A stretch of 60,049 nucleotides of DNA, filler included, from Sphacelaria rigidula (Eukaryota), in assembly GCA_964200075.2 (NCBI GenBank). It is 8 parts of 8 records of this genome, joined end to end, with 100 filler letters (N's around TTAATTAATTAA, not from the genome) between each part and the next. Parts side by side here need not be neighbours in the genome. Positions count along the whole stretch, not along the records: positions 52,632 to 60,049 come from CAXNAA020015014.1; 7 more parts are not named here. One strand, 5' to 3'. The translations under genes and the position numbers were made by a program. Each line of letters starts with the position of its first letter. The stretch's first letter is position 1. A model generated the notes under the pieces. The model saw only the letters and a program-made list of their open reading frames with translations. It had not been told where the DNA came from and made no database searches. Below are positions 4,801 to 60,049 of this stretch, piece after piece.

Positions 4801-6608
4801 CAACACTCCTTCCGATGCTGAACATGCAGCACTCATGCTCACCACTCGGCCGTATCGACGGTGGCCGCGAAAAGGTGAAGCAGCGACCGAACTAAGGTAC
4901 CAGCAGTGGCTAGAATCGGCAAATTATGTCCGGAACAACAAGACGCCCGAGTAGAGACCAACAAGTGTACCTTAACGCAGATCTCTCAAGGGTACAGGAC
5001 AGCTCTGCTGGATTGCGCAAAACCTTGTAACCAGCTATCAAAACATCTCGGCGGTGTTTCTCGTCTTCTTGCACCAACACGGCACTAGGACAGCATGTAT
5101 ACAAAGGAAGAGACACGAGAATCGAGCCAAGTCCACGTATATTTGCGCCGCAAGAAAACTTCGCTCACCACCGCACCCTAGATTATGTGTTGGTAGAGAG
5201 GATATACCTCTCTTTGGTCACCTCCGAAACACACACTCGAGGTGCCATGCACAAACGCACACAACAGAGGAAAAATCAAAATAGAAAATACCAAAAATAC
5301 TCAATTTATTGAGCAAAAAACACAAATCCTCCTTTACCCCCCTCCCTCCCTCCCTCCCCTCCCTCTGCGCCGTCTCGAAAGGGATGTGTGGCCAACAGTC
5401 AAACGATGAAGACAAGCAACATTTGAGTACGCCCTCCGCCCCTCCGTCCTCTCCCCGTACCAGAAACGAAACAAAAGTAGGGGGAAGAAAACTCGCGCGC
5501 CGAGGAATACGCACCTGTGCGAGCCTTCTAGCGTTGGCGTGGTCGTCGCTCAATCTCGGGAGCTGCTTCCTGAGCCCCTCCATTGCCGCGGCGGCTACCA
5601 CCCCCGACTGCCTCATCCCTCCCCCAAGCGCCTTGCGTACCCGGTGCGCTCGGCTGATGAAATCAGCAGACCCCACCACCGCGGAGCCAACTGGCGCACC
5701 TAGCCCTGCCGTTTTGTTGTTTGGTGGGTAGGTCGGTCGGCCGTGTGTTCGGGTTTGTTGTTGTTTTTTTCGACGAGTCCATCGACCGGTCGAGAGCATA
5801 GCATGGCGGTATCCAGTCCCCAGCAACATACATATATTCAAGTCATGCTCTACTCAGATACCTCTCGTTTCGCTGGATCTATCAGTCATGAAGTATAGTA
5901 CCATAACATCCAGTCTCCCAAAGCACACCAGTATATATACATACATACATGCCATGCTTTATTCACAGACAATCCATAGTACACCATGATTAACACCACC
6001 ACGGGTGTTCATCCACCCCATAAGCACACTAGAGCACCCCCCCCCCTACCCCCTACCCCACTCCTTCCTGCAGTGCACTGCTCATGCGCGTGATTTCTTC
6101 CTGCTGCTTCCTGACTGCCTGACAAAAAAGGACACGTACACGAGTGTTTCGACCCTGTAGCGACAGCATAATGTGGCGAGCACACCAAACATCCGCACTG
6201 TCCGCACAGGCATGGCGGGGCATTTATTTCGGCGCTCCTTTCCACCCTCTACCCCGCTCCACGTGTCCAGGCTATCAGTTGTTGTTTCAAACCTCCATGT
6301 CCTTGCCGAAAAAAAGGTAGTCAACCCGGCAATGTCAAATGCTAAACCACAAGTATGCTGCCGTGTGTTTGGTACAAGGGAGCGTAGCAGCCAATACTTG
6401 CTCACGAACACGCACTGGCATGATACGCATGTTCTGGTGTTGCTCCGGCCCATCTGAGGAGCAGCCCTCCTACTTTTCCCCCTTCACCTTTGGAGTAGCA
6501 CACGGAGACACTATCCACGCCGGACACGATGGAAGCAGGAGACCGCCGAGTAGCAGCAGCAGCGTTCCATAAGCGAGCGCCGTCCATGTGCACCCTCAGT
6601 CCTTCCTC
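1900..6608 (-). CDS. ltaE: Low-specificity L-threonine aldolase (PLP-dependent), 3' four exons; 5' part is outside the contig
   Basis: Exons 6608-6488, 5705-5515, 2794-2588 and 2022-1900 splice in frame at GT-AG sites. They give [18 protein letters not shown]...[17 protein letters not shown]...[17 protein letters not shown]...[16 protein letters not shown]...VQTNVV...[18 protein letters not shown]...PEV*. HxDGARLx[12 protein letters not shown] (PLP lysine) and GGGMRQ are diagnostic family motifs. Confidence 0.95.
3105..3462. repeat. Dense array of GATATC/CGATAT motifs (intronic low-complexity element)
   Basis: Many copies of ATATCG/CGATAT/GATATC in both orientations within ~350 bp. Confidence 0.5.
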
Positions 6609-7420: not shown

Positions 7421-7520
7421 NNNNNNNNNNNNNNNNNNNNNNNNNNNNNNNNNNNNNNNNNNNNTTAATTAATTAANNNNNNNNNNNNNNNNNNNNNNNN
7501 NNNNNNNNNNNNNNNNNNNN
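7421..7520. other. Artificial contig spacer N44-TTAATTAATTAA-N44 (first of seven)
   Basis: Identical 100-bp spacers are at 7421-7520, 14940-15039, 22459-22558, 29978-30077, 37496-37595, 45014-45113 and 52532-52631. The 12-mer puts stops in all six frames. Confidence 0.98.
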
Positions 7521-14939: not shown

Positions 14940-16374
14940 NNNNNNNNNNNNNNNNNNNNNNNNNNNNNNNNNNNNNNNNNNNNTTAATTAATTAANNNNN
15001 NNNNNNNNNNNNNNNNNNNNNNNNNNNNNNNNNNNNNNNTCTACTGCAATAGACAATAGATTCCATACTGTACGCAGTACATTTTTTGACCGTGTATTCT
15101 ATTGTCCAGGGTATGCGTGACTTGCACATCACAGGAGGAACATACATACTGTCGGTTTCAGCGTCGTTCGTAGTGGTGCAGTGCATTGCAGTGCTGTCCA
15201 ATGCAGTACACCACAGTACACCACTTTGTTTTTCCTTGGCGGAAGGAGGAAACCCGACCCAAGACTTACCTCGCAAGCGAGTTCGTGCCGCGATTACCCG
15301 AAGGCTCGGCTAGACTGCCTGGCGGCAGTCATGTGGGGAAGGCGCCTCGTGCGCTCGTAAGCTTTGCTCGAGGCAGTGTGGGGGGTGCTCCAACTAAAAC
15401 TCTCTATCACCTTGGCGCATTACACGCACCGCCATGCCCTTATGAGCTTCGGCCCTGGTGTCGCTGCAAAGGGGCAGTAGCCGTCAGGTCGGAAGTGTCC
15501 CCATCTTTTTAACGGTACTGCTATACTACGTGGAACGAGATGCCGATATATTACTGTCGCATGTAAGGCGCGCGAAAGCTGCGCGGTATAGAGACGGAGA
15601 AAATGGCTCTGTGCATCTGCGGCGTCGGTTGTCGCAGATGCCAAGCGGAGTTCGGGCACTTAGCACTCGCCACTTTTCAGGTATTCTCTGAGGTTCAGGT
15701 ATAGCCAGGGGAAGAGATGTAGACGGTTTGAGGTACAAGTTCTGGGTGTGCAGTCTTCATTGGATACTCTACAACATCGGCCAGTCGGATGACCGTGTTT
15801 GGGGGCAGTGTATATTTCAGCGGGAGCTGTACCTAGAACTGTCGAAAAATGGTCTCAGGTATACTCGAACGTGACAGTTCCACTTGAAATGTTCATTCAC
15901 ATCTCGTAAACAGTCGCCCCAACAGTTAACACCTAATCGTGCAAAAATTATGCTTCGAAGCATTGTTCTTGCCGTCCATTTATAGAACGTTTTCAATGCA
16001 TACTGGCCAGGAGACGTGTGTTTTCATCTGCGCATGTGCACAATAGGTCGACGTGTGTCTCCTTGTGTAAGTGTCGATTAAGAACACGCAGCACGAGGTA
16101 TGACGGCAGCAGAAAACAAAATTGACAGGAGCGATTCATCTAGCCGTTGCCCTGTGGACAGCAAACACCGGATATTTGCCGGATGTCCCCGTATCAAGTG
16201 GATGGAACCATATTAATCACTGCGGGAGTCCTGAACACCTCGAACCGCCGCGGACATTGGGACGCACGCGAAGGATTCTGACAACTGTAAGCACCGTCCT
16301 GTTTGACGGACGCCGAAGACCAAAATGAAAACCCACGCTCACGTCTTGCTTTGATGAACCGTTGGCTTTGGCAG

Positions 16375-22458: not shown

Positions 22459-25400
22459 NNNNNNNNNNNNNNNNNNNNNNNNNNNNNNNNNNNNNNNNNN
22501 NNTTAATTAATTAANNNNNNNNNNNNNNNNNNNNNNNNNNNNNNNNNNNNNNNNNNNNAGTTTAGCAGGGAGAGTCTGGAAAACTAGTGATTAGCTTCGG
22601 GCACAGGGCTTCACGGACGCGTGAGGAGGCTTCAAGCTGAGGCAGCTGCAAAGGCGGCTGGCCCGTGATTGATCCAGACTGGAGACTCCTGCGCCGCGCG
22701 CGCTTTAGGGGTGCTGTGGCGAAATCACGCCGTCACGGTTGAGTATATAGTGGATCCTGGATGATGACCAGGGGGCAAGTGCATCCTGTGGATGATGACC
22801 CTTGCTGTGCAGCCCAGGATTGTGGCACGGGGCTGCAGATGTTTACTCCGAATAATGATAAGGTGTTATAAAGGGTGACAACTGAGACTTTGAGGCCAGT
22901 GGAGCTGGGGAGTCCCTCAACAGCATTCAGACGCTGCAGTACTAGCAACCTGCTAGCGTCACAGGGCACGTGCATGCATCGGAGGCACAGTGACGAGGTA
23001 TATTGATGACATGTTCGAATGGTACAATTACAGCTTCCCCCCTAACGTGCACCATGTTGCGACGGTGCGTTCAAACGCCTGATCGTTTACCATTTGTTGT
23101 TATAGAGGTCTCTACAACTTCTCGGTAGACGGCAATTCTACTTTTTTGGAAGCTGTTTATGGGAGCTACGTTCCAATGTGAAAATATGGATAGTATAGAG
23201 CATCTGCGAGCCCTTTTCGATTCTGTACGAAGTGACGACGCCAAGAAAGTAGCCTAGGACACACTAAAAGCCGCAGACAAGGTCTTTCATCCTCATCAAT
23301 GTCATCTGCGCCAAACGACGAGGGTTATACCGTACGTTTATTGGTCGTGCAGTCGGGTAGGAGATATAATTTCACATATTTATTACGGTCACCCTGTGCG
23401 CGGGGGAACAAAAGATGGTGGGAGATATTTGATATTTTCGTCACCACAACACCGGGGTAGGGGGGAGGGGGGGGGCTACGCGGTATTTCTACAGAATAAA
23501 CTAACAATAAACAAGACACCTTCGCCGAAACGCCATGTCCCAAATGTTTATAGACGCAAATATTCAAGGGGAAAAGGTGTAGGGGAAAGTAATTAGACCC
23601 CGCGTGCTTATGCCGAACATTATCAAAGAGGCACCGGAAACATTTGCCTGCCACAGATAGTAGTGCCTTATATGGCAGGTGGGGGGGGGAGGCGTACCCA
23701 TTTGTTGCTTAGTCGTGTGACCATTGACATATGGCAGGGGGGGTCGACAGTAGAGAAGCGGTCGACAGAGGAACCTTGACGGGAGAGTAGAGGGAAATCC
23801 AGAGCAGCAAAGGGCACCAGAAAGTAACTCCAAGGCAGAGAAGAAAAACCTCTACACGAGGACAGCTGCCCCTATGCACGCCCGCCAAACTACTGCACGT
23901 CACACAGCACCTCTGCGCTGTGAGGGGTTCTAGGCACGCGCTTTTGAGGCAACCCATCTCTCTCCTTCTGTTGATCCCGTGATCCATCCGCACGCTCTGC
24001 GAGGGCAATAAGCTACAGTGGAAGACGCAACCGCATGTACTACTGCCGAGCTATATATATATATATATATATATGTACGCGGGAAAAACTGGTGCTGCTG
24101 TACTTGCGCACATCACGTCCGGCCAGGGATTGAAAATGAAAATAAAGTAAACCCGTCTTCCATACCAACCATATAAGACCGTCCCTACATGCCCCAACAC
24201 GCACGCATAGTCGACTGCGGGATAACGGTAACGTCAGCTAAAACGTTTGATGAAATACTCATATATCATGGGGGACAGGATGCTTGCACGGGGTGGACTT
24301 TTTTCACGACGTCAGGGTCCATGGCCAGGAGGAACGCCACCAGGCTGCTCTCCGGGTACACGAAGGAGCAGAACGATGCCCGCATTCCGGTTGGACAATA
24401 CCCCCATCTGACTCTTCCTCGCTAATGGACGATGGCTCTCCGTGTATATGACGCCGCTTCACATCCTCAGGATCTTCGAAACAGTAAGAACAAGATGCGG
24501 AGGGATGAAACTAGGGCGATTATGATCGGGGATCAATTTTTCAAGCGTTTGAGACAAGATCATACAAAACCGGATATCTACGATGACACGTCCGAACGTT
24601 TCTGACAACCTAGAGGCGGCAAAAACCGTCCAAGGCTAACTTTCAGCACAGTGTGACAATGAGTCCCACTTCCTGGAATTGTTGGACAGTACTTACCCCG
24701 GTCGGGCTCCAGAGCTCTGTGTGCCCCGTAGATGCTTGGCAGAGTTGGAAAGTTGGTAGGTGCTGAGATTTGCAATTTGGCATAAGAGCATCGGGGGCAA
24801 AGAAGTCGTAGCAGGATCTTCCTTTCGACGCTTTATTTGATGATTTGAAACCGGATCGTGATGCCATACGACGGTACATTTACCGTGGTAAACATTTTCC
24901 CATTCACGTGGTGCACACCTAGCCATTTGCCTCGCCCCAAAACTCCCTCGAGAGGAAAATTTCCCCCTCTAGAGATAAAAAAACACCCTCTACAGGACCT
25001 GTGGAGGGGCAAAAAGTGGTAGAGGGGTCCATTTTCTACCATTCTAGAGGGTGTGTCAGCCCATACATCAATAGCCCACTGGAAACACTCTGGATGGAGG
25101 ACCTTGACCTCCCCCTAGCGGGGTGGCGTGCATTCTGCGGAGGCTCTACAACAAAATGAAACCCTCCAGAAGGATGTGTCGACTGCTGAAACTCTACAGC
25201 GATGGCCCGGCCCCCAGAGGTCATTCTGGTTTCATGCCTTTCTGTTCGTTGTTTCACCCTCTGGATAAATGAAATAGGCGTGTCGCATTTGTTTCTTTCG
25301 AAAGAATGCGGTCGATGTCTTTTTGCCGATCTGACAGGTCCATCGCATTTATGTTCCTAGATGGCTCCCACTCGAAAGTATAGTTAGTGGCGCGCGGAGA

Positions 25401-44645: not shown

Positions 44646-45689
44646 CTGCGTTACCGATTAAACGGACACCCAGCGGACATGAGAGTTGCCGGAGTGAACA
44701 CGGAAACCGAGAGGGGGGTAGTATATAAATGCACTTTTACAATGTCGTCCTGAAATGCTAACCCGTCTAGGTGATGACATGAGCGCGGAGGAGCGTTAGA
44801 GTGGGGAGATGAAGCTTGATCCTTGAACCCCAACCCGGAACGAGAACGTTCCCCGACCGTTTCATAATGATCACCGGTCGGTGAAGGTTCATCCGACCCA
44901 CGGTCTTATTCGTAAGTGCAGCACGTTCAAAGCATTCTCGCTGGGGGGGGGGCGTACTCATTTGTTGCTTGCCTTAGTCGTTTGACCATTGACCACGCAT
45001 CCCTTTCGAGACGNNNNNNNNNNNNNNNNNNNNNNNNNNNNNNNNNNNNNNNNNNNNTTAATTAATTAANNNNNNNNNNNNNNNNNNNNNNNNNNNNNNN
45101 NNNNNNNNNNNNNCTCACTTAAAGCGAATGATCAAAGCCGCTCTCAATCGTATCATCTACTCTCAATCTCACGAAAACACTGTTAAGTGCGATTCACCGC
45201 CCAATTTGACGAGTTTTTAGCTGAAATTCTACCACGATATTTTGGTCGTTGTTGCCTACAAAGTCGTTTGGGGTGCAGCCATATGTATCATTTTATCGTA
45301 AAGTGATGGCATTTTCCTCATTTTGCCGCAACTTTTGCTCGCTCTGTCTTTTTTCTTCTTTTTTCTGCGCTTCAAACAATCTTGGGGGGGCTGACCAAAC
45401 AAATGTCGGCGAAATTTCAGCGCCTAACTCTTCGATTTACTAAGTGGATAAACTATTGCCCATCACGTGGGATTGTCAGCTGGACCTGCTCGTATTGTGT
45501 TCGCTCACATCCTTATCCTCTCGACGGTGGAAATCAGAGGCTATAAAAACAAAAAACACTACGAACCCTCCTTCTCCCCACCGTCATCGCGATGGTCGGA
45601 CCATTACGCTACCGGGATTACTTCGCGGGGATGTCCAGTGCACCGCATTGAATACAAAATCATTCAGATACAACGGGAGAATGCTCAAG

Positions 45690-52497: not shown

Positions 52498-53817
52498 CGG
52501 AGACCATCCAACGAACCGGCTACGATCCCACNNNNNNNNNNNNNNNNNNNNNNNNNNNNNNNNNNNNNNNNNNNNTTAATTAATTAANNNNNNNNNNNNN
52601 NNNNNNNNNNNNNNNNNNNNNNNNNNNNNNNGCTGACCCAATCCGCGGGACCAAAATGTAAGGCGCGTACTGGGGGAGAGATGGGTTGATCCCTTGAGAC
52701 CACGGACTCATCCCGAGGAAGGGGAGAGGTTCAAAGTGCGAGGGAGAAAAACAAACAAACTATGCAACGATTGTTGAGTATGAAGCACACTTACGCCGGA
52801 GAACGTCATGTGTGAGAAATTCTAGGAGTGATAATACAAGCTCCGTGATTGTCTCAAGTATCAGCGGCAGTGAAGGTTGAAGGTATTATGGCTCGCATCG
52901 TATTTTGGATAGAGTAACCACGCAGCATCAAGCCAGTGTCACGCACTCGCTTTTCGTCAACCCCTAGTTTAACCATCACCCTACCCGAACCCTCAAGCCA
53001 AGGTGGACTGAAAATCTCAAGCAAGAGGAGCGGCTACGTATGCATCGGCAGATCTCAGATCGACGTCTGGGGGGTTCGAGTGGAGCTGTAACTAAACGCG
53101 CGTTGCGCTCTCTTACGAGCGATCAAGACTGCCACCCCCCCCAAGATCCCACCGAAGGTACCGAAGATAGAAGACGACGATACCCCAGGTCCTTCGGGTT
53201 TCCAGAGTTTTGTCAACACTCGGTAGTCCGGAGTGCTTGGAGTATCGACCGCCGAAAATACCAAGTATTCCAGAGTACCTGGAGTATCGACACCTCAAAT
53301 CATTCGTACCCTATCCTAAGCATCTTCGGAAGATTCGAAAGTCGAAAACTTGCTACTGTCTCTAGCTGTCTGGATACAGTAAGACCGATCACGCTTCACA
53401 CTTTGAGGATTGGCTGCGAGCTTTAGGACTCGTATTCGAAAAAATTGAGTCCAACAAGTCCTATTGCTCGAACACATGCATGCTGATGAGCGGCACGGGG
53501 GGCCAACCGCGCATTCAGCTGAGGGGGATTGATGATCTCAGGAGTTCCTACTTCTGTGATGACAAACCCATCTACCGTTTGTCCGTGTGCCATAAAAGTC
53601 GGATCCGAAGACTACCGTGAGTACTTTACCGTTCGACTCCGCAGCTTTTAATCCTGGGCTCTTTCAGGGGTGCGCCCAAAGTTGTGGTGTTAACCGCACT
53701 GTCACGAGACCCCAGACCCTGCACTTTCTAGAAAATCGTACTGTGGTGAGACCCCCGCTGTATCAGGAGTACAAATAACCACTCAGCCAACAGTCAGCGC
53801 TGACTCTTGGCTATATC

Positions 53818-54158
53818 CTCAGTGGTTATGTGTACTCCCAACAAAAAAGTACAATCCAGGGTGCGAATCTCCCGATCACAAGCCTACGAGTGTCACCATC
53901 TTCGCCGCGCGTTTTTCTTTTTAGATGGAGATTAATTGCGAAAATACACACCAGGTTCAAATAACACACATGTCCAGGCAGCAAAAATGGATAACAAACG
54001 ACCGCAACACATACCGGGCATGTGGAGTGGCGCTGATTACAGGGATGATAACCTCGGGGGGGAACCCATGATCTACCAGCATGACGGCTGAGCGATCCTC
54101 GGGTGTACTCCCAACATGGATTGTACTTTTGTTGGGAATATACAAAATAATCACTGAG
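53818..54158. mobile_element. MITE with ~40-bp TIRs; additional TIR-like copies flank it
   Basis: CTCAGTGGTTATGTGTACTCCCAACAAAAAAGTACAATCC ... GGATTGTACTTTTGTTGGGAATATACAAAATAATCACTGAG. Related ends occur at ~53765-53786 and ~54186-54208. Confidence 0.65.
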
Positions 54159-55044
54159 CAAACAGTCAGCCCTGCCGACTGCTAGCTCAGTGGTTGTATG
54201 TACTCCTATCACGCTGTACTATGGACACCCACTTCCACTGGAGTACGGTTCTCATAATACTTCCAAGCGGCACACAGTATACCGCGGATATCACCACCCC
54301 AGAAAACATCCACCGATTTTCAAATTTGGAGGCCAACGAACGAGCTGGGCCAGCCTAGAAGCGGGTTCAGAGTTTGCACGCCCATTCGCAATTCAATGCT
54401 TCGAGTTGAACCCTAAACGTTTGTATGGACAATCAATAGTACAAAAAAAAAAAAAAGTATGCATAGGCCCGAAGATTTTTATTTCACGATTTCACGGCAT
54501 TTTACTGAAATCAATCTGAAAATTGCCTTTAACTCATGAAATAAAAATCGTTGGGTCCATGCACACTCTTTTTTTATATGCCCTCCTCGTTGTCCATACC
54601 CAATATTAGGGTCCAACTCGAAAGCATTAAGTTGCGACTGGGCTCTCTGAAAACCGGGCTGGTGAAAATTCGGAGTGTATTGCAGCCCACTTACCGGCCC
54701 ACGTTTGGTATTTCAGTATTGGAATTTTGTGTGGGACCTCGCTAGGCCATAATGAACCCAAAAAAGTGGGAGCGGTTGATTTTTTTTGAAAACTTGTTTT
54801 GGACGTTTTAGTAGAGTAAGTATCATATTTTCACGAGAACGCCCATACTCCTCCAAAAACAGAAATTGAAGGCCCATTTCTTTCCTTCGGCATGCCTTCG
54901 CGATTCTGCATGATAAGCTTTTTTTTTTTCTTTAGAGCGTGTTTGAATTCCGTTTTTCTTGAGTACGTCTGTCACGAGACCACGGCTGGACCCCCGGGGG
55001 GTCAGTTAAAGTGCGACAATCAATCAATCATCAATCAAGTTTAA

Positions 55045-55162
55045 CCCTTTCGGAACCTGTCGATGATTTTGGTTTTTGTGAATCGGCATCATTTTCAGTC
55101 ATTTTCAAGTAAAAATGATGCCGATTCACAAAAACAAAAATCGTCAATGGGTTCCAAAAGGG
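55045..55162. mobile_element. Tiny palindromic piggyBac-type MITE (118 bp)
   Basis: TTAA|CCCTTTCGGAACC...TTTTTGTGAATCGGCATCATTTT-loop-AAAATGATGCCGATTCACAAAAA...GGTTCCAAAAGGG|TTAG. A related core occurs at ~31903-31958. Confidence 0.7.
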
Positions 55163-56849
55163 TTAGGTTTCGAATCACAATTCTTAAAATTGAGCTGAAG
55201 AAGTGAGATGAGATCCGAGAGCACTCTCCAGTTTCCCTCAGAATTCGCTTAAAGTTTTTTGAAAAAATGAAGGATTTTTTTTTTTTCCCCATCACCATGC
55301 AGTAGCGATTTTCCTTGCGAAATTTCAATCACAACTCTCGAAAACGGAGACGCGATATCCAGATTTAGTGTATTTATTTAGTGCCTCTGCTCGTAATATA
55401 TCGATTTTAGTATGGAAAATTATGTGCGCCATATTTCGAGATGAATAACGAATTAGGTGAAGGTAAGGATATCGATCGTCTCCCCGTGCTCCAGGTAATG
55501 TCCACACCAAAAGTCGTCATCCTTCGCTGTATAAATCGTTCGGGGTTTCACATGGACTTTGTATGGACGCTGTTTCTGTATGGTATAGGAATTACTAGAC
55601 ATGGGGTTTCATCAACGAGAAAGAAATGGCCCAGACTTTTGAGCAGATGCGCACTTTCCTCTTGAACAGACGATTAATACGATATGCGGATCACGGCCCA
55701 GCTCGTCTGTTTCGATGAGATATTGCTGTGAGAGCTGAAATCTGCGTCTAGGCCGGCCCAGTTCGTATGTTGTTTGCTTGGTCTGCTGGTGTCCCCATAT
55801 TCCTCTTGTTATTTTCTGCTTTCTCTCTCGCTCGCTCTCTTCTCTCATTCCCTTCCCCCCTCATTTATATTTTTCCCATGTAATAATTTTTTTATTCTAA
55901 CACGAGCTTGTACAAATTGCAAATGCATTTTTCTAGTATGAGCCTTGGGAACCATCATGAGCATCCAAATATTATTTTCTAAAAAGAAATGCAAAATGCA
56001 CTTTCCGGCCGTGATGGTGTGTAGCCTCGCTTGTCCTCAGAACAAAACCCATCCGCAATTTGTATAATCCCGTGTTAACGGGGCACTATGGCAAATAAGA
56101 GCAAGTTTCTAGTTCGGGAGAGAACGGAGATCCGCTTTGTCGGATACAGACGCGGGATTTTACAAGTTGTGGATGTACTTGGGGGGGATCAGCGAGGCCA
56201 CACATCACGACTGGTGAGCGCATTTTTGCTTTTCTTTCGAGGCCATTTATTGGATGCTTGTCAAGGTGCCCCAGGCTCATCCTCAAGAAAATCCACTCCC
56301 ATTTTTTTACCCCGCGTTCTTCGCTGTTTCTTGTCTCTTTCGTCTCGATTTCTTCTCTGTTCACTTTTTTCTTTTGTCTTTATTATTTTCGCCGAGACCA
56401 GTTATTCGTGTTATTTTTCTCCTTTCCTTTCCATTCCCTTCCGTTCCTCCTCTACTTCGCTTTACTTTCCCCTTCTTTTCTTCTCTTGTACTTTTCCTTC
56501 TGTTCTTTTCGTCTCTCGTTTTTGTCCACTTTTTGACTTCTTCTGTAATATTTCCGTTTATTTCCTCGTATCCTCCCTTTCTGGAGTTTGCTTTGGCGTT
56601 TGTTTTCCATGGGTACGTCTATCCTGTGGATAATGATCACTATCGCGGCTGGATCCATCGGGTATCAGATAGAGCTAATGATTTGCGAGAAGTAATGAAA
56701 TAATGAATTAATATCAACAGCAATATATATGTCATGCGAAAAGTTTAAATGCGAGTGAGTATACATTCATTAATTTTTCCCGGCTTTTGTCGCCTAATTG
56801 ATGGTGCTGAGTAAAACTAACTCGACAACCGGGAGATGACGACAAGACG

Positions 56850-57080
56850 GCTCGTTGAAGTCATATGACACGTAAAAGCTGGTAGCCTCTGCTGCCCACC
56901 CGTCCAGGTCAAAGCCGACTTGTCCATCCAATGTGGGAAGTCCCTCGAGTGCATTCAGTTTGTCAGATGGACTGGATGCACTCAAGAGACTTCCCACATT
57001 GGATGGACAAGTCGGCTTTGACCTGGACGGGTGGGCAGCAGAGGCTGCCAGCTTTTACGTGTCCTATGACTTCGACGAGC
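56850..57080 (+). ncRNA. Long near-perfect hairpin 1 (candidate pre-miRNA/hpRNA); the 3' arm is a candidate exon
   Basis: Ungapped inverted repeat of ~110 bp (56850-56959 vs 56971-57080) with 6 non-Watson-Crick positions and a 59-bp perfect run. The loop is tiny, and there are no TIR/TSD hallmarks of a MITE. Strand is inferred from splice signals only. Confidence 0.55.
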
Positions 57081-58078
57081 GGGATGCTGATTCGAACGGT
57101 AAGTATAGCATCGTCTTTTTGTAGCCATAGTATACGGATCCGTTTTCATTGTGTTGTTCCTTTTTTTTTGTAGTTTTATACGGTAGCCGTGTTTGTATCG
57201 CGTTCCTGCAGTCCATAGCTCATGGGTGAGTGAGATTGTCATGCCCAAACAATGGGGGACCTGACCGGTAGCTAAGCCGTACCCTGCTCGCACAGCATTT
57301 ATGTTTCGTTCTGGTTTGTCTGCTTGTTGTGTGTCTGAGTTAGATTGTTTTGTTCAATTTTCCACGCGCGGCTAGCTTCACCTTAATTAAGCCATGCTAC
57401 AGGGGCCGGCCATTTTATTGCCACTCATTTATTGGTGTCATTGCGGGATCTGTTTTCTACAATATCTCCTCCTTTCCCTCTCTTGGATTACGCCGTTCGT
57501 TATGTCCTTGTCTATATCTTTCTCCCCCCTCGGGTCTTGGTTCCCGAGAGCTACAGTAGTAGTGTTTTTGTTCTGTTCATCTCGATCACGCCTATGTCTT
57601 GTTACCACGACTGAACCCCGATGTCTCGAAGGAGTTTATTGTCCGAGTTGTAGAACGGTAATGGGTCATGATCAGGACGTATCAACGTGCAGCTACTCTC
57701 CGGATATTCTGCTGTACGCGAGTCGTACGCTCTGTACACATATCCAGATGATCTCGGCAGTGCATGCTTTGCTTGCACTTGAACTATTATTGCTACGTAT
57801 TACTCCTGTATATATCCGACTTTAACCGCGAGGTGTTGTTTCCATGGGATAACACATGTCGTGGATGTGTACAGGCTGCCTAAGCATGAATCTCGATGGT
57901 ACATCGCATATTGACTACATGATGGCACTTCCAACACACTTGTGTATATATATGTAGCTGCTGAGTGCTATAAATATTGAAGACTTGCGTATTCGACCGC
58001 AAGAACCGATCTGGATTCGACCACATGTTGTCCAATTGCGAGAGCTATTTGTGTTGTACAAGTGTATCCTGTAGATAA

Positions 58079-58285
58079 GCCCTACCCCCGGTCTCGCTGG
58101 CAGGCCCTCCACCAATTGGAGTAACACCTGTTCGAGATCATCCTCCCGTGCATCGAGTGGCGCTTCGCCGTCTGTTCCGCCCGGCACATATGAAGAAGCG
58201 CCATTCGGTGCACGGCATAAGGATGATCTCGGGTAGATGTTTCTCCAATTGATGGAGGGCCTGCCAGCGAGACCGGAGGTAAGGC
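58079..58285 (+). ncRNA. Long imperfect hairpin 2 (candidate pre-miRNA)
   Basis: Arms 58079-58166 and 58195-58285 pair with G-U wobbles, a few mismatches and one asymmetric bulge; the loop is ~28 nt. The hairpin is bracketed by acceptor TCCTGTAG (58074) and donor AG|GTAAGG (58279). Confidence 0.55.
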
Positions 58286-58846
58286 ATAACCTACGAACAA
58301 AAAAAACACTCCTGCATGTGTCCAGCTCCGATCGATTGCATTTGTTCATTGTTCCCGTGTGCCGTAACGGGCTCAGGTCTTGTCAACGAGAGCCGTTCAG
58401 GACGATGAGAAACAAGGAGACGTCTGTTCGACTGTTTTCCGCTTTTGTAACGTTTCCGTACATGGCTTCTGTTGTATTTGTGTTCATTGGTGTACCCACC
58501 TGTGTCTTCAACGTGCACATCAATTTTCTCAGGGTCATGTCAGTTTCCGTTTCGGTTTGGAAAATGTACACGGCCCCAAAAATGAGCATGGCTGCGCGAC
58601 TCACGCAACCTGGTGCAGGTATTGCTCCGAAACTGCATTGCAGTGCAGATGTGATTCCGCTGGTTTTGTGGATGACAATGACGGTGTTGGACGCTCGAGG
58701 GGGCGTTGTTACATATCATTGAGAAGCGATTCCAAATGTGTATCAGATGGGCCGAAGCCTGTATTTGTCAAACTGTCGTTTTTTCATCAGCTATTGCAGA
58801 AGACTCGAAACCGACGAAGAAAAACTCCGATTCATTGCCACCTTTA

Positions 58847-59320
58847 GACCAACTCTAATGGGAGCCGTTCGAAATCCTGTTGAAAACTGCCTTTTGAGCA
58901 CTTCTCCGTCGTTTTACGCCCGAAAAGAGAGCTTGGCGGATGTTGACACCTTGGAATGAGTTGCTCTCCTCGCTGAGACCGTTCCAGAGCAACTTTGCAC
59001 TTCCCGCAGGCCGCAGTTTTAATTTTGGCCAAACTTTCGTTTTCAATAAAAAACGGTCACGTGATCAAAATACTGGCAATGTCCCCTCTGTTTTTTTATA
59101 ACTTGACCGTTTTTTATTGATAATGCAAGTTTGGCCAAAAATAAAACTGGGGCCTGCGAGAAATACAAAGTTGCCCTGGAACGGTCTCAACGAGTTGTGC
59201 AAGTCATTTCAAGGCGTCAACCTCCGCCTACGTAGCTCTCTTATCGGACATAAAACGACGGAGAAGGGCCGAAAAGCCGTTTTCAATAGGAGTTTTGAAC
59301 GACTCCCATTAGAGTTGGCC
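58847..59320. mobile_element. Foldback MITE with ~220-bp inverted arms, PIF/Harbinger-like ends
   Basis: TTA|GACCAACTCTAATGGGAG ... CTCCCATTAGAGTTGGCC|TCA. The arms are alignable over their full length, with 3-bp TNA flanks. Confidence 0.7.
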
Positions 59321-59729
59321 TCAAAACGGTTCTAGGAAAGTACTAGACAATCTGAAGAAACTGTAGTACTGATGTAAATAAATTTGTGTCTTGTTTTCGC
59401 ATCCAAGCTCAGCACGGAGAGCAAAAACACACGGAAGAATCGGAGAACACGGCGACATTTGTGCTTCACTAAGATGTGTTGTAGTACAACAAAAACACTG
59501 GCAAGGCATTTCGCGTTCGACGGAATACACGACCCTAGCTAGTACTGTTGATGCTTTTTTCCAGGTCGATTTTTTCTCGAAGCCTGTTGCTTTCGAGAGT
59601 TTGCACGGTCGTGATGAAACAGTTGTGTAGTTTGAGGAATACACAGTCAAAACCTCCGTCTCATAACGTCTGTTATGGCTGGAATTGCCAGATTTCCTGT
59701 AAATATTGCAAGGGTAGGTCGAGTGGGGT

Positions 59730-60005
59730 ATACTCAATACTCAGTATTTTTGAAGAGCCATACTTTTAGTACTCAAAATTTGAGTAGAATATTTGGGGCC
59801 GTACTCGACGTACTCAAAGTTTGAGTAGAAAATTGAGGTCATACTCAAGTAATACTGAGAGTATTTACTCCATATTTGAGTAGAGTATTTGAGACCATAC
59901 TCAACGTACTCAAAATTCGAGTAGAGTATCTGAGGCCGTACTCGACGTACTCAAAATTCGAGTAGAGTATTGAGGTCGTACTGAAGTGATACTCTATACT
60001 CAAGA
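59730..60005. repeat. Minisatellite-like array of ~41-bp units with an internal palindrome
   Basis: Unit GTACTCAAAATT(C/T)GAGTAGAGTAT(C/T)TGAGGCCGTACTCGAC is repeated about 5 times with degeneration. It contains TACTCAAAATTTGAGTA. Confidence 0.75.
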
Positions 60006-60049
60006 ACGTTGTGATTCTTAGTTTTTTGGTTGGCGGTATTTGGGGCATT

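Follow-up and report, generated by a model that had tools for sequence, protein, structure and literature searches.

Two long foldbacks, HP1 and HP2 (Table 1), lie close together in a stretch of DNA from the brown alga Sphacelaria rigidula (GenBank assembly GCA_964200075.2). On balance, they are best regarded as inverted duplications that arose locally, recently and independently of each other in non-coding DNA rich in foldbacks, forming raw material of the "genomic hairpin" kind. The stretch, hereafter the window, has 60,049 bases and consists of eight pieces of ~7.42 kb each, joined by 100-base linkers of the form N44-TTAATTAATTAA-N44 (7421–7520, 14940–15039, 22459–22558, 29978–30077, 37496–37595, 45014–45113 and 52532–52631), with a further 10-N gap at 34427–34436; features are not readable across the joins. 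All six foldbacks described here (HP1–HP6) are in the last piece, 52632–60049 (7.4 kb). The preliminary description of this DNA had proposed that HP1 and HP2, within one contig, are successive exons of one spliced small-RNA precursor or splicing switch. Since the window is eight joined pieces, the words "within one contig" are correct for the last piece only and do not extend to the whole window.

Both foldbacks were found at the positions given in the preliminary description, and both fold far better than shuffled sequences. The minimum free energy (MFE) of HP1 as RNA is −225.7 kcal/mol compared with −85.1 ± 4.8 for the shuffles (z = −29.05), and that of HP2 is −165.7 compared with −75.5 ± 4.8 (z = −18.69); none of 200 shuffles was as good in either case. 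The 965 nucleotides (nt) between the two hairpins are ordinary, with a z-score of −0.83 and 4 of 20 shuffles as good. In the MFE fold, the terminal loop of HP1 is reduced to 3 nt of the 11 nt that separate the arms. HP2 is composed of outer arms at 58076–58144 and 58220–58288 (69 nt, 87%) and inner arms at 58137–58179 and 58182–58224 (43 nt, 74%). In a blastn comparison over the 59-kb window (word 9, E < 0.01), each hairpin matches only its own other arm, and no flanking direct repeat was seen by eye at 56850/57080 or 58071/58294. Thus, the hairpins are unrelated to each other, do not recur in the window and show no target-site duplication (TSD), as previously described.

Copy number was taken as the summed depth of contigs from four coded public runs aligned to the piece, a measure that counts only copies with at least 90% identity to the window. 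Run X1 has zero differences from the window and is possibly the source sample; X3, produced in another study, is ~1% different, and X6 and X7 are two RNA-like runs. A single 834-nt contig (57626–58459) crosses the whole of HP2 in both X1 and X3, with zero and nine differences, respectively, and the depth bin of HP2 is 34 in X1 and 42.1 in X3. For HP1 the corresponding bins are 58.9 and 60.6, and unique bins nearby (57096–58335) range from ~30 to 66; a depth of about twice the baseline is expected, because the HP1 arms map on each other. The HP1 contigs break at 56913/57017 in X1 and at 56920/57010 in X3, in each case 30 nt inside the innermost arm difference, as expected when a true inverted repeat is assembled from 31-letter words. 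In the X3 contigs, both HP1 arms keep the letters that distinguish them and continue into their own unique flanks. HP1 and HP2 are real DNA and single-copy at this level of identity. The single-copy depth, together with the spanning of HP2 in a run of the second study, shows that they are neither artefacts nor ordinary multi-copy foldback transposons, the latter being the case that the preliminary description had named as contrary to its own proposal.

Regarding constraint, no selection for an RNA structure on one strand is indicated, and the pattern fits neutrally decaying DNA palindromes. Stem mismatches that would form G–U pairs on the plus strand, G–U pairs on the minus strand or neither number 3, 2 and 1, respectively, in HP1 without its loop, and 6, 5 and 7 in HP2. 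The MFE values of the plus and minus strands are −225.7 and −215.3 for HP1 and −165.7 and −173.1 for HP2. The lack of strand bias in the mismatches and the near-equal folding of both strands thus give no sign of strand-specific RNA constraint. X3 differs from the window at six positions in 372 nt, and two of the three listed fall in the 5′ arm of HP1 (56856 and 56890); the change at 56890 looks uncompensated, as judged from the X3 contig breaks.

No parent or target gene of the arms was found in the tested protein frames, in Pfam or by blastn in the window. Of 70 open reading frames (ORFs) of at least 55 amino acids (aa) in the last piece, none reached the Pfam cut-off and one gave a sub-threshold chance match; among 12 long ORFs of the window, the only Pfam match was a threonine-aldolase exon in piece 1. 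Residues 29–74 of the HP1 reading frame P0001 returned 140 candidates and P0123, also of HP1, returned 6, none of which scored, in searches of proteins longer than ~130 aa only. The 155-aa ORF of HP2 gave no match at E ≤ 0.001 in a phmmer search against 1.84 billion representatives. These searches covered two plus-strand ORFs of HP1 (P0001 from residue 29 onwards, and P0123) and one ORF of HP2; the protein collection includes brown-alga proteomes, as shown by its threonine-aldolase matches. One exact word from each hairpin gave no hit among metagenome contigs (0 and 0). With no protein or Pfam relative, the route of inverted duplication of a gene is without support, and a non-coding or unannotated parent may remain compatible with the protein-level searches. 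In Rfam 15, no match reached the gathering threshold in the whole window; 30 sub-threshold matches in the last piece, to assorted microRNA (miRNA) models, represent generic hairpin matching, one example on HP1 having 37.5 bits compared with a threshold of 70.

We infer that the hairpins probably belong to a plus-strand transcription unit, within either a long intron or a non-coding part of it, a setting that is argued from their surroundings and not proven. RNA-like contigs at 52709–53158 (depth 11.9) and 52782–53158 (depth 28.3) share their end point, and the latter represents 377 nt on the window of an 847-nt contig. This arrangement fits a plus-strand exon that is joined by splicing to sequence beyond the unique parts of the last piece, and 53158 is likely the exon end of a transcript without a Pfam-recognisable ORF. 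RNA-like contigs of low depth also cover 55686–56018 and 56633–56851, the second of which extends up to the base of HP1. Contig depth in X6 and X7 is zero or near zero over 56848–58583 and is not readable as evidence on expression. The plus strand is T-rich over 55800–58800, with an AT skew down to −0.77, and the last piece carries 15 GTRAG motifs on the plus strand and 4 on the minus strand. Together, the upstream plus-strand exon with a donor at ~53158 and the T-rich plus strand make plus-strand transcription plausible. The most abundant repeat of the last piece (52632–52879, depth ~4.5e5 in X1) abuts this upstream exon.

In the favoured reading, DNA palindromes with very short spacers would arise in situ, by replication template switching or fold-back repair, and HP1 and HP2 would then decay neutrally. 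As a part of that reading, and with the same measured preference, HP1 is taken to be young (~5% arm divergence) and HP2 to be older (~17% arm divergence). If the region is transcribed, each hairpin would give a duplex of ~105–110 bp, from which Dicer would be expected to release heterogeneous 21-mers resembling small interfering RNAs (siRNAs), rather than one precise miRNA. The GGTAAG motifs described below would then be part of duplicated or adjacent sequence, perhaps former exon ends, and no processing device would be needed.

We compared the two hairpins with known classes of hairpin loci. The miRNAs of brown algae evolved independently. Genomic hairpins, rather than transposons or genes, are considered the main source of brown-alga miRNA loci (Tarver et al. 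2015, PMC4513859; Cock et al. 2017, PMC5381526). Like these genomic hairpins, HP1 and HP2 are long foldbacks in non-coding, probably intronic DNA, have no recognisable transposon or protein-gene origin and are at least as large as the mean miRNA foldback, which is 170 nt in Ectocarpus and 183 nt in Saccharina. In the same two papers, 75% of the brown-alga miRNA loci are intragenic, for the most part intronic and in the orientation of the host gene, and many extended-hairpin candidates were rejected as non-miRNA. Clusters are rare, and one of the six clusters in Saccharina consists of unrelated miRNAs (PMC5381526). Unlike the accepted miRNA loci, HP1 and HP2 have longer and more perfect stems, and, in contrast to the rarity of clusters, two unrelated hairpins are found within 1.2 kb. 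Nearly every stem position is paired, so that a 21-mer has 15 nt or more in pairs with the other arm, the pairing asked of a canonical miRNA precursor (PMC5381526). The same criteria also call for miRNA and miRNA* reads with 2-nt 3′ overhangs and precise 5′ ends, and they exclude extended hairpins on which other small RNAs are more abundant. With stems of 105–110 bp, both are extended hairpins by form, and the tip of HP1 (3 nt in the fold, 11 nt between the arms) is not the loop measured by the miRNA–miRNA* criterion of at least 8 nt.

Other classes resemble the hairpins in part. The hairpin RNA (hpRNA) loci of LIRBase, which produce endogenous siRNAs, share the near-perfect inverted repeat and short loop; from HP1 and HP2, too, transcription would be expected to yield a long duplex and, from it, heterogeneous siRNAs. 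However, both arms of LIRBase long inverted repeats exceed 400 nt (PMC8728187), whereas those of HP1 and HP2 are ~105–110 nt and fall below the definition. A proto-MIRNA formed by inverted duplication of its target gene would also be a young, near-perfect, single-copy inverted duplication; unlike this type, neither HP1 nor HP2 has a parent or target gene among the sequences searched. The hairpins stand between the miRNA and hpRNA classes, being too long and perfect for a precise miRNA and shorter than the catalogued hpRNA loci. HP6, HP2 and HP1 are single- or low-copy and differ in age; situated beside high-copy foldbacks and 3′ of a transcribed exon, the three would offer a natural series for the birth of miRNAs if small RNAs show processing; without such processing, the locus is an ordinary local inverted duplication in repeat-rich non-coding DNA.

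Table 1. Features of the last piece of the window, in order of position; a slash within a motif marks the putative exon boundary, and MITE stands for miniature inverted-repeat transposable element
Feature	Position	Strand	Description
Upstream transcribed exon (putative)	52709–53158	+	RNA-like contigs stop at 53158, plus-strand GT next
HP4	54395–54628	.	AT-rich, decayed (~74%), moderately repeated; depth 1130 / 1545
HP5	55042–55165	.	124-nt foldback, AT-rich, high-copy, MITE-like; depth ~1e5
HP6	55929–56291	.	Arms 55929–56075 / 56150–56291, 71–78%, z −12.26; older foldback
Candidate first exon	56088–56213	+	ATG, 42-codon ORF to GTGAG at 56214; in loop and 3′ arm of HP6
CT-rich low-complexity tract	56300–56600	+	AT skew −0.73 to −0.77
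HP1	56850–56959 / 56971–57080 (arms)	.	Foldback; arms of 110 nt, 95% complementary, 11 nt between
GTAAGT donor-like motif (G/GTAAGT)	57099–57104	+	GT at 57099–57100, ~18–19 nt past HP1 3′ arm, outside the repeat
HP2	58071–58294	.	Foldback; arms ~83% identical, 6 gap columns
GTAAGG donor-like motif (AG/GTAAGG)	58279–58284	+	GT at 58279–58280, inside HP2 3′ arm, base-paired in stem
HP3	58843–59324	.	482-nt foldback, arms of 139 + 91 nt, z −31.55; very high-copy, MITE/foldback-like

Several observations weigh against neutral duplication as the whole explanation. The plus-strand donor-like motifs that the preliminary description had noted at the 3′ bases of both hairpins are present, and their association with the hairpins is the one feature that neutral duplication does not predict; it keeps alive the exon-derived and precursor explanations treated below. 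The plus strand of the window contains five copies of GGTAAG (0.11 per kb per strand), two of which are the sites at the hairpin bases. By hand estimate and post hoc, the chance of such a pattern is ~1e-5 for the exact motif and ~0.002 if any GTRAG in a 30-nt zone is counted at both bases; pure chance is unlikely for the two GGTAAG sites. Furthermore, the hairpins are GC-rich islands (0.51–0.59) in T-rich flanks (0.30–0.48), which gives them an exon-like look. In HP1, five of the six arm differences fall in one codon phase (p ~0.05 by hand estimate, too weak to call coding), and the terminal loop contains an acceptor-like TTTGTCAG followed by A, and open frames run to the donor. Lastly, possible gene conversion between the arms would keep them alike, so "young" is not proven, copies below 90% identity are not counted in the depth, and the similarity search spanned the window, not the whole genome.

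The donor-like motifs differ in their relation to the two repeats (Table 1). In HP2, a decayed mirror of GGTAAGG is found in the 5′ arm as GGTAGGG on the minus strand, and the repeat runs ~16 nt past the donor. The position inside the repeat and the decayed mirror show that the motif was inherited with the duplicated unit. Just 3′ of the HP1 motif, the window has C at 57125 where most of the X1 depth (141.6 of 163.2, in two contigs) and all of the X3 depth have T, possibly an assembly or allele difference.

These observations give a limited probability to an origin of the hairpins from exons. In this explanation, which we consider doubtful, the 3′ arms would be the 3′ ends of present or former exons in a plus-strand gene that is non-coding or poorly conserved, and each would have an inverted copy just upstream, so that pseudo-exons are held in duplexes. 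It would account for GGTAAG at both 3′ ends, for the extension of the HP2 repeat ~16 nt beyond the donor, as if an exon–intron boundary had been copied, and for the acceptor-like loop motif with its open frames, the phase of the HP1 arm differences and the GC-rich islands. However, no tested frame has a protein or Pfam relative, and the HP2 mismatches are spread over the codon phases in the proportion 7/6/5. Moreover, stop codons interrupt all three plus frames of the HP2 3′ arm. To our knowledge, no mechanism is known that would hit exon ends twice.

The neighbourhood of the hairpins raises the question of transposon origin. The last piece contains six foldbacks in 7.4 kb, compared with one long inverted repeat in the other 52 kb, and four of the six (HP3–HP6) are additional to those described before. 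The depth bins of HP3 are 89035 and 22273 in X1 and 114808 and 27238 in X3, exceeding the single-copy flanks by roughly three orders of magnitude, which makes HP3 a very abundant foldback or MITE-like repeat. For HP5, the divergence of many contigs at 55030 and at 55164/55165 marks the boundaries of the repeat, and a second copy (92%) is found at 31900–31960, in another piece of the window. Beside that copy lies an inverted repeat with 106-nt arms (31442–31547 and 31729–31834, 78%) and a 181-nt spacer. HP6 has a depth of 234 / 191 in X1, a few-fold over the baseline.

In such surroundings, HP1 and HP2 might themselves be relics of low-copy foldback or MITE-like transposons, whose relatives have diverged past 90% identity and whose arms have been kept alike by gene conversion. 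We regard this as improbable. Four other foldbacks lie within 5 kb, two of them very high-copy and two moderately or slightly repeated, and short spacers are common to all of these foldbacks; like MITEs and foldback transposons, the whole of each hairpin is an inverted repeat with a short spacer, and high-copy HP3 and HP5 are adjacent. In contrast, HP1 and HP2 are at single-copy depth, have no other copy in the window, unlike HP5, and show no TSD, and their arms are GC-rich compared with the AT-rich HP4 and HP5.

The explanation closest to the preliminary description is that of one spliced plus-strand non-coding transcript, in which HP1 and HP2 lie in successive exons before active 5′ splice sites and act either as a small-RNA precursor with several hairpins or as a splicing switch controlled by structure. 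Bielewicz in 2013 and Knop in 2016 reportedly observed that a downstream 5′ splice site promotes miRNA biogenesis in plants. As in such plant primary transcripts (pri-miRNAs), a donor-like motif occurs within 20 nt of each 3′ stem base, to judge from sequence; unlike in that type, the HP2 motif is itself paired within the stem. Also in line with a precursor are the strength and common strand of the two motifs, the upstream transcribed exon with its donor, the low-depth RNA-like contig that reaches the HP1 base, the T-rich plus strand, the single-copy state of the hairpins and a brown-algal host, and the stems are in the upper size range of brown-alga foldbacks (PMC5381526). Nevertheless, we judge this explanation to be rather unlikely. 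The stem mismatches have no strand bias and both strands fold about equally, the HP2 donor is within the repeat with no plus frame longer than ~55 nt leading up to it, and the stems far exceed, in length and perfection, what a precise miRNA precursor requires, with only a minute loop at the tip of HP1. Clusters of unrelated miRNAs are rare in brown algae (one of six in Saccharina; PMC5381526), and no target was found in the protein searches or by blastn in the window. In addition, ordinary high-copy foldbacks are present in the same piece, and the candidate first exon lies within the older foldback HP6. The ATG, the GTGAG at 56214 and the CT-rich tract that follows are all present as previously described, but the segment is unsupported as an exon, being inside HP6 and without a Pfam match. 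A mirtron arrangement was rejected, because the donor motifs are at the 3′ base of the stems, not at the 5′ base.

A wider form of this idea would treat a plus-strand non-coding host transcript as a nursery of small-RNA genes, in which exon ends turn into unrelated hairpins of graded age (HP6, HP2, HP1), each keeping at its 3′ base a 5′ splice site through which splicing and Dicer processing are linked. We give it little credence. If true, the locus would be a type of cluster, made up of unrelated hairpins, that published surveys of brown-alga miRNAs almost entirely lack. Judged by titles and the start of abstracts, no report of splice-site-coupled hairpin clusters in brown algae was found, and the supplementary locus lists of the miRNA papers might hold comparable loci; from 2018 on, we found no report on small RNA with inverted-repeat hairpins in Phaeophyceae.

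Some long-read libraries are known to yield artefactual palindromes with tiny loops, but an origin of HP1 and HP2 from chimeric palindromic reads, or from another assembly or sequencing artefact, is extremely improbable, since short-read-derived contigs from two studies carry the hairpins, the ~1% different X3 spans HP2, and each HP1 arm with its own letters continues into its own unique flank.

Two further observations concern the ends of the window. The last piece ends in a tandem array (59757–60049) with a partly palindromic 41-nt unit and a depth of 5e4–1.8e5; many contigs skip or repeat units, and the array is a high-copy, satellite-like repeat. In piece 1, threonine-aldolase (PF01212) exons on the minus strand at 2456–2932 and 5221–5853 are 85–89% identical to proteins of Scytosiphon, Ectocarpus and Ascophyllum, as fits a brown-algal source if the pieces share one genome, and the best brown-alga matches are ~890–960 aa long, which is unusual for this enzyme.

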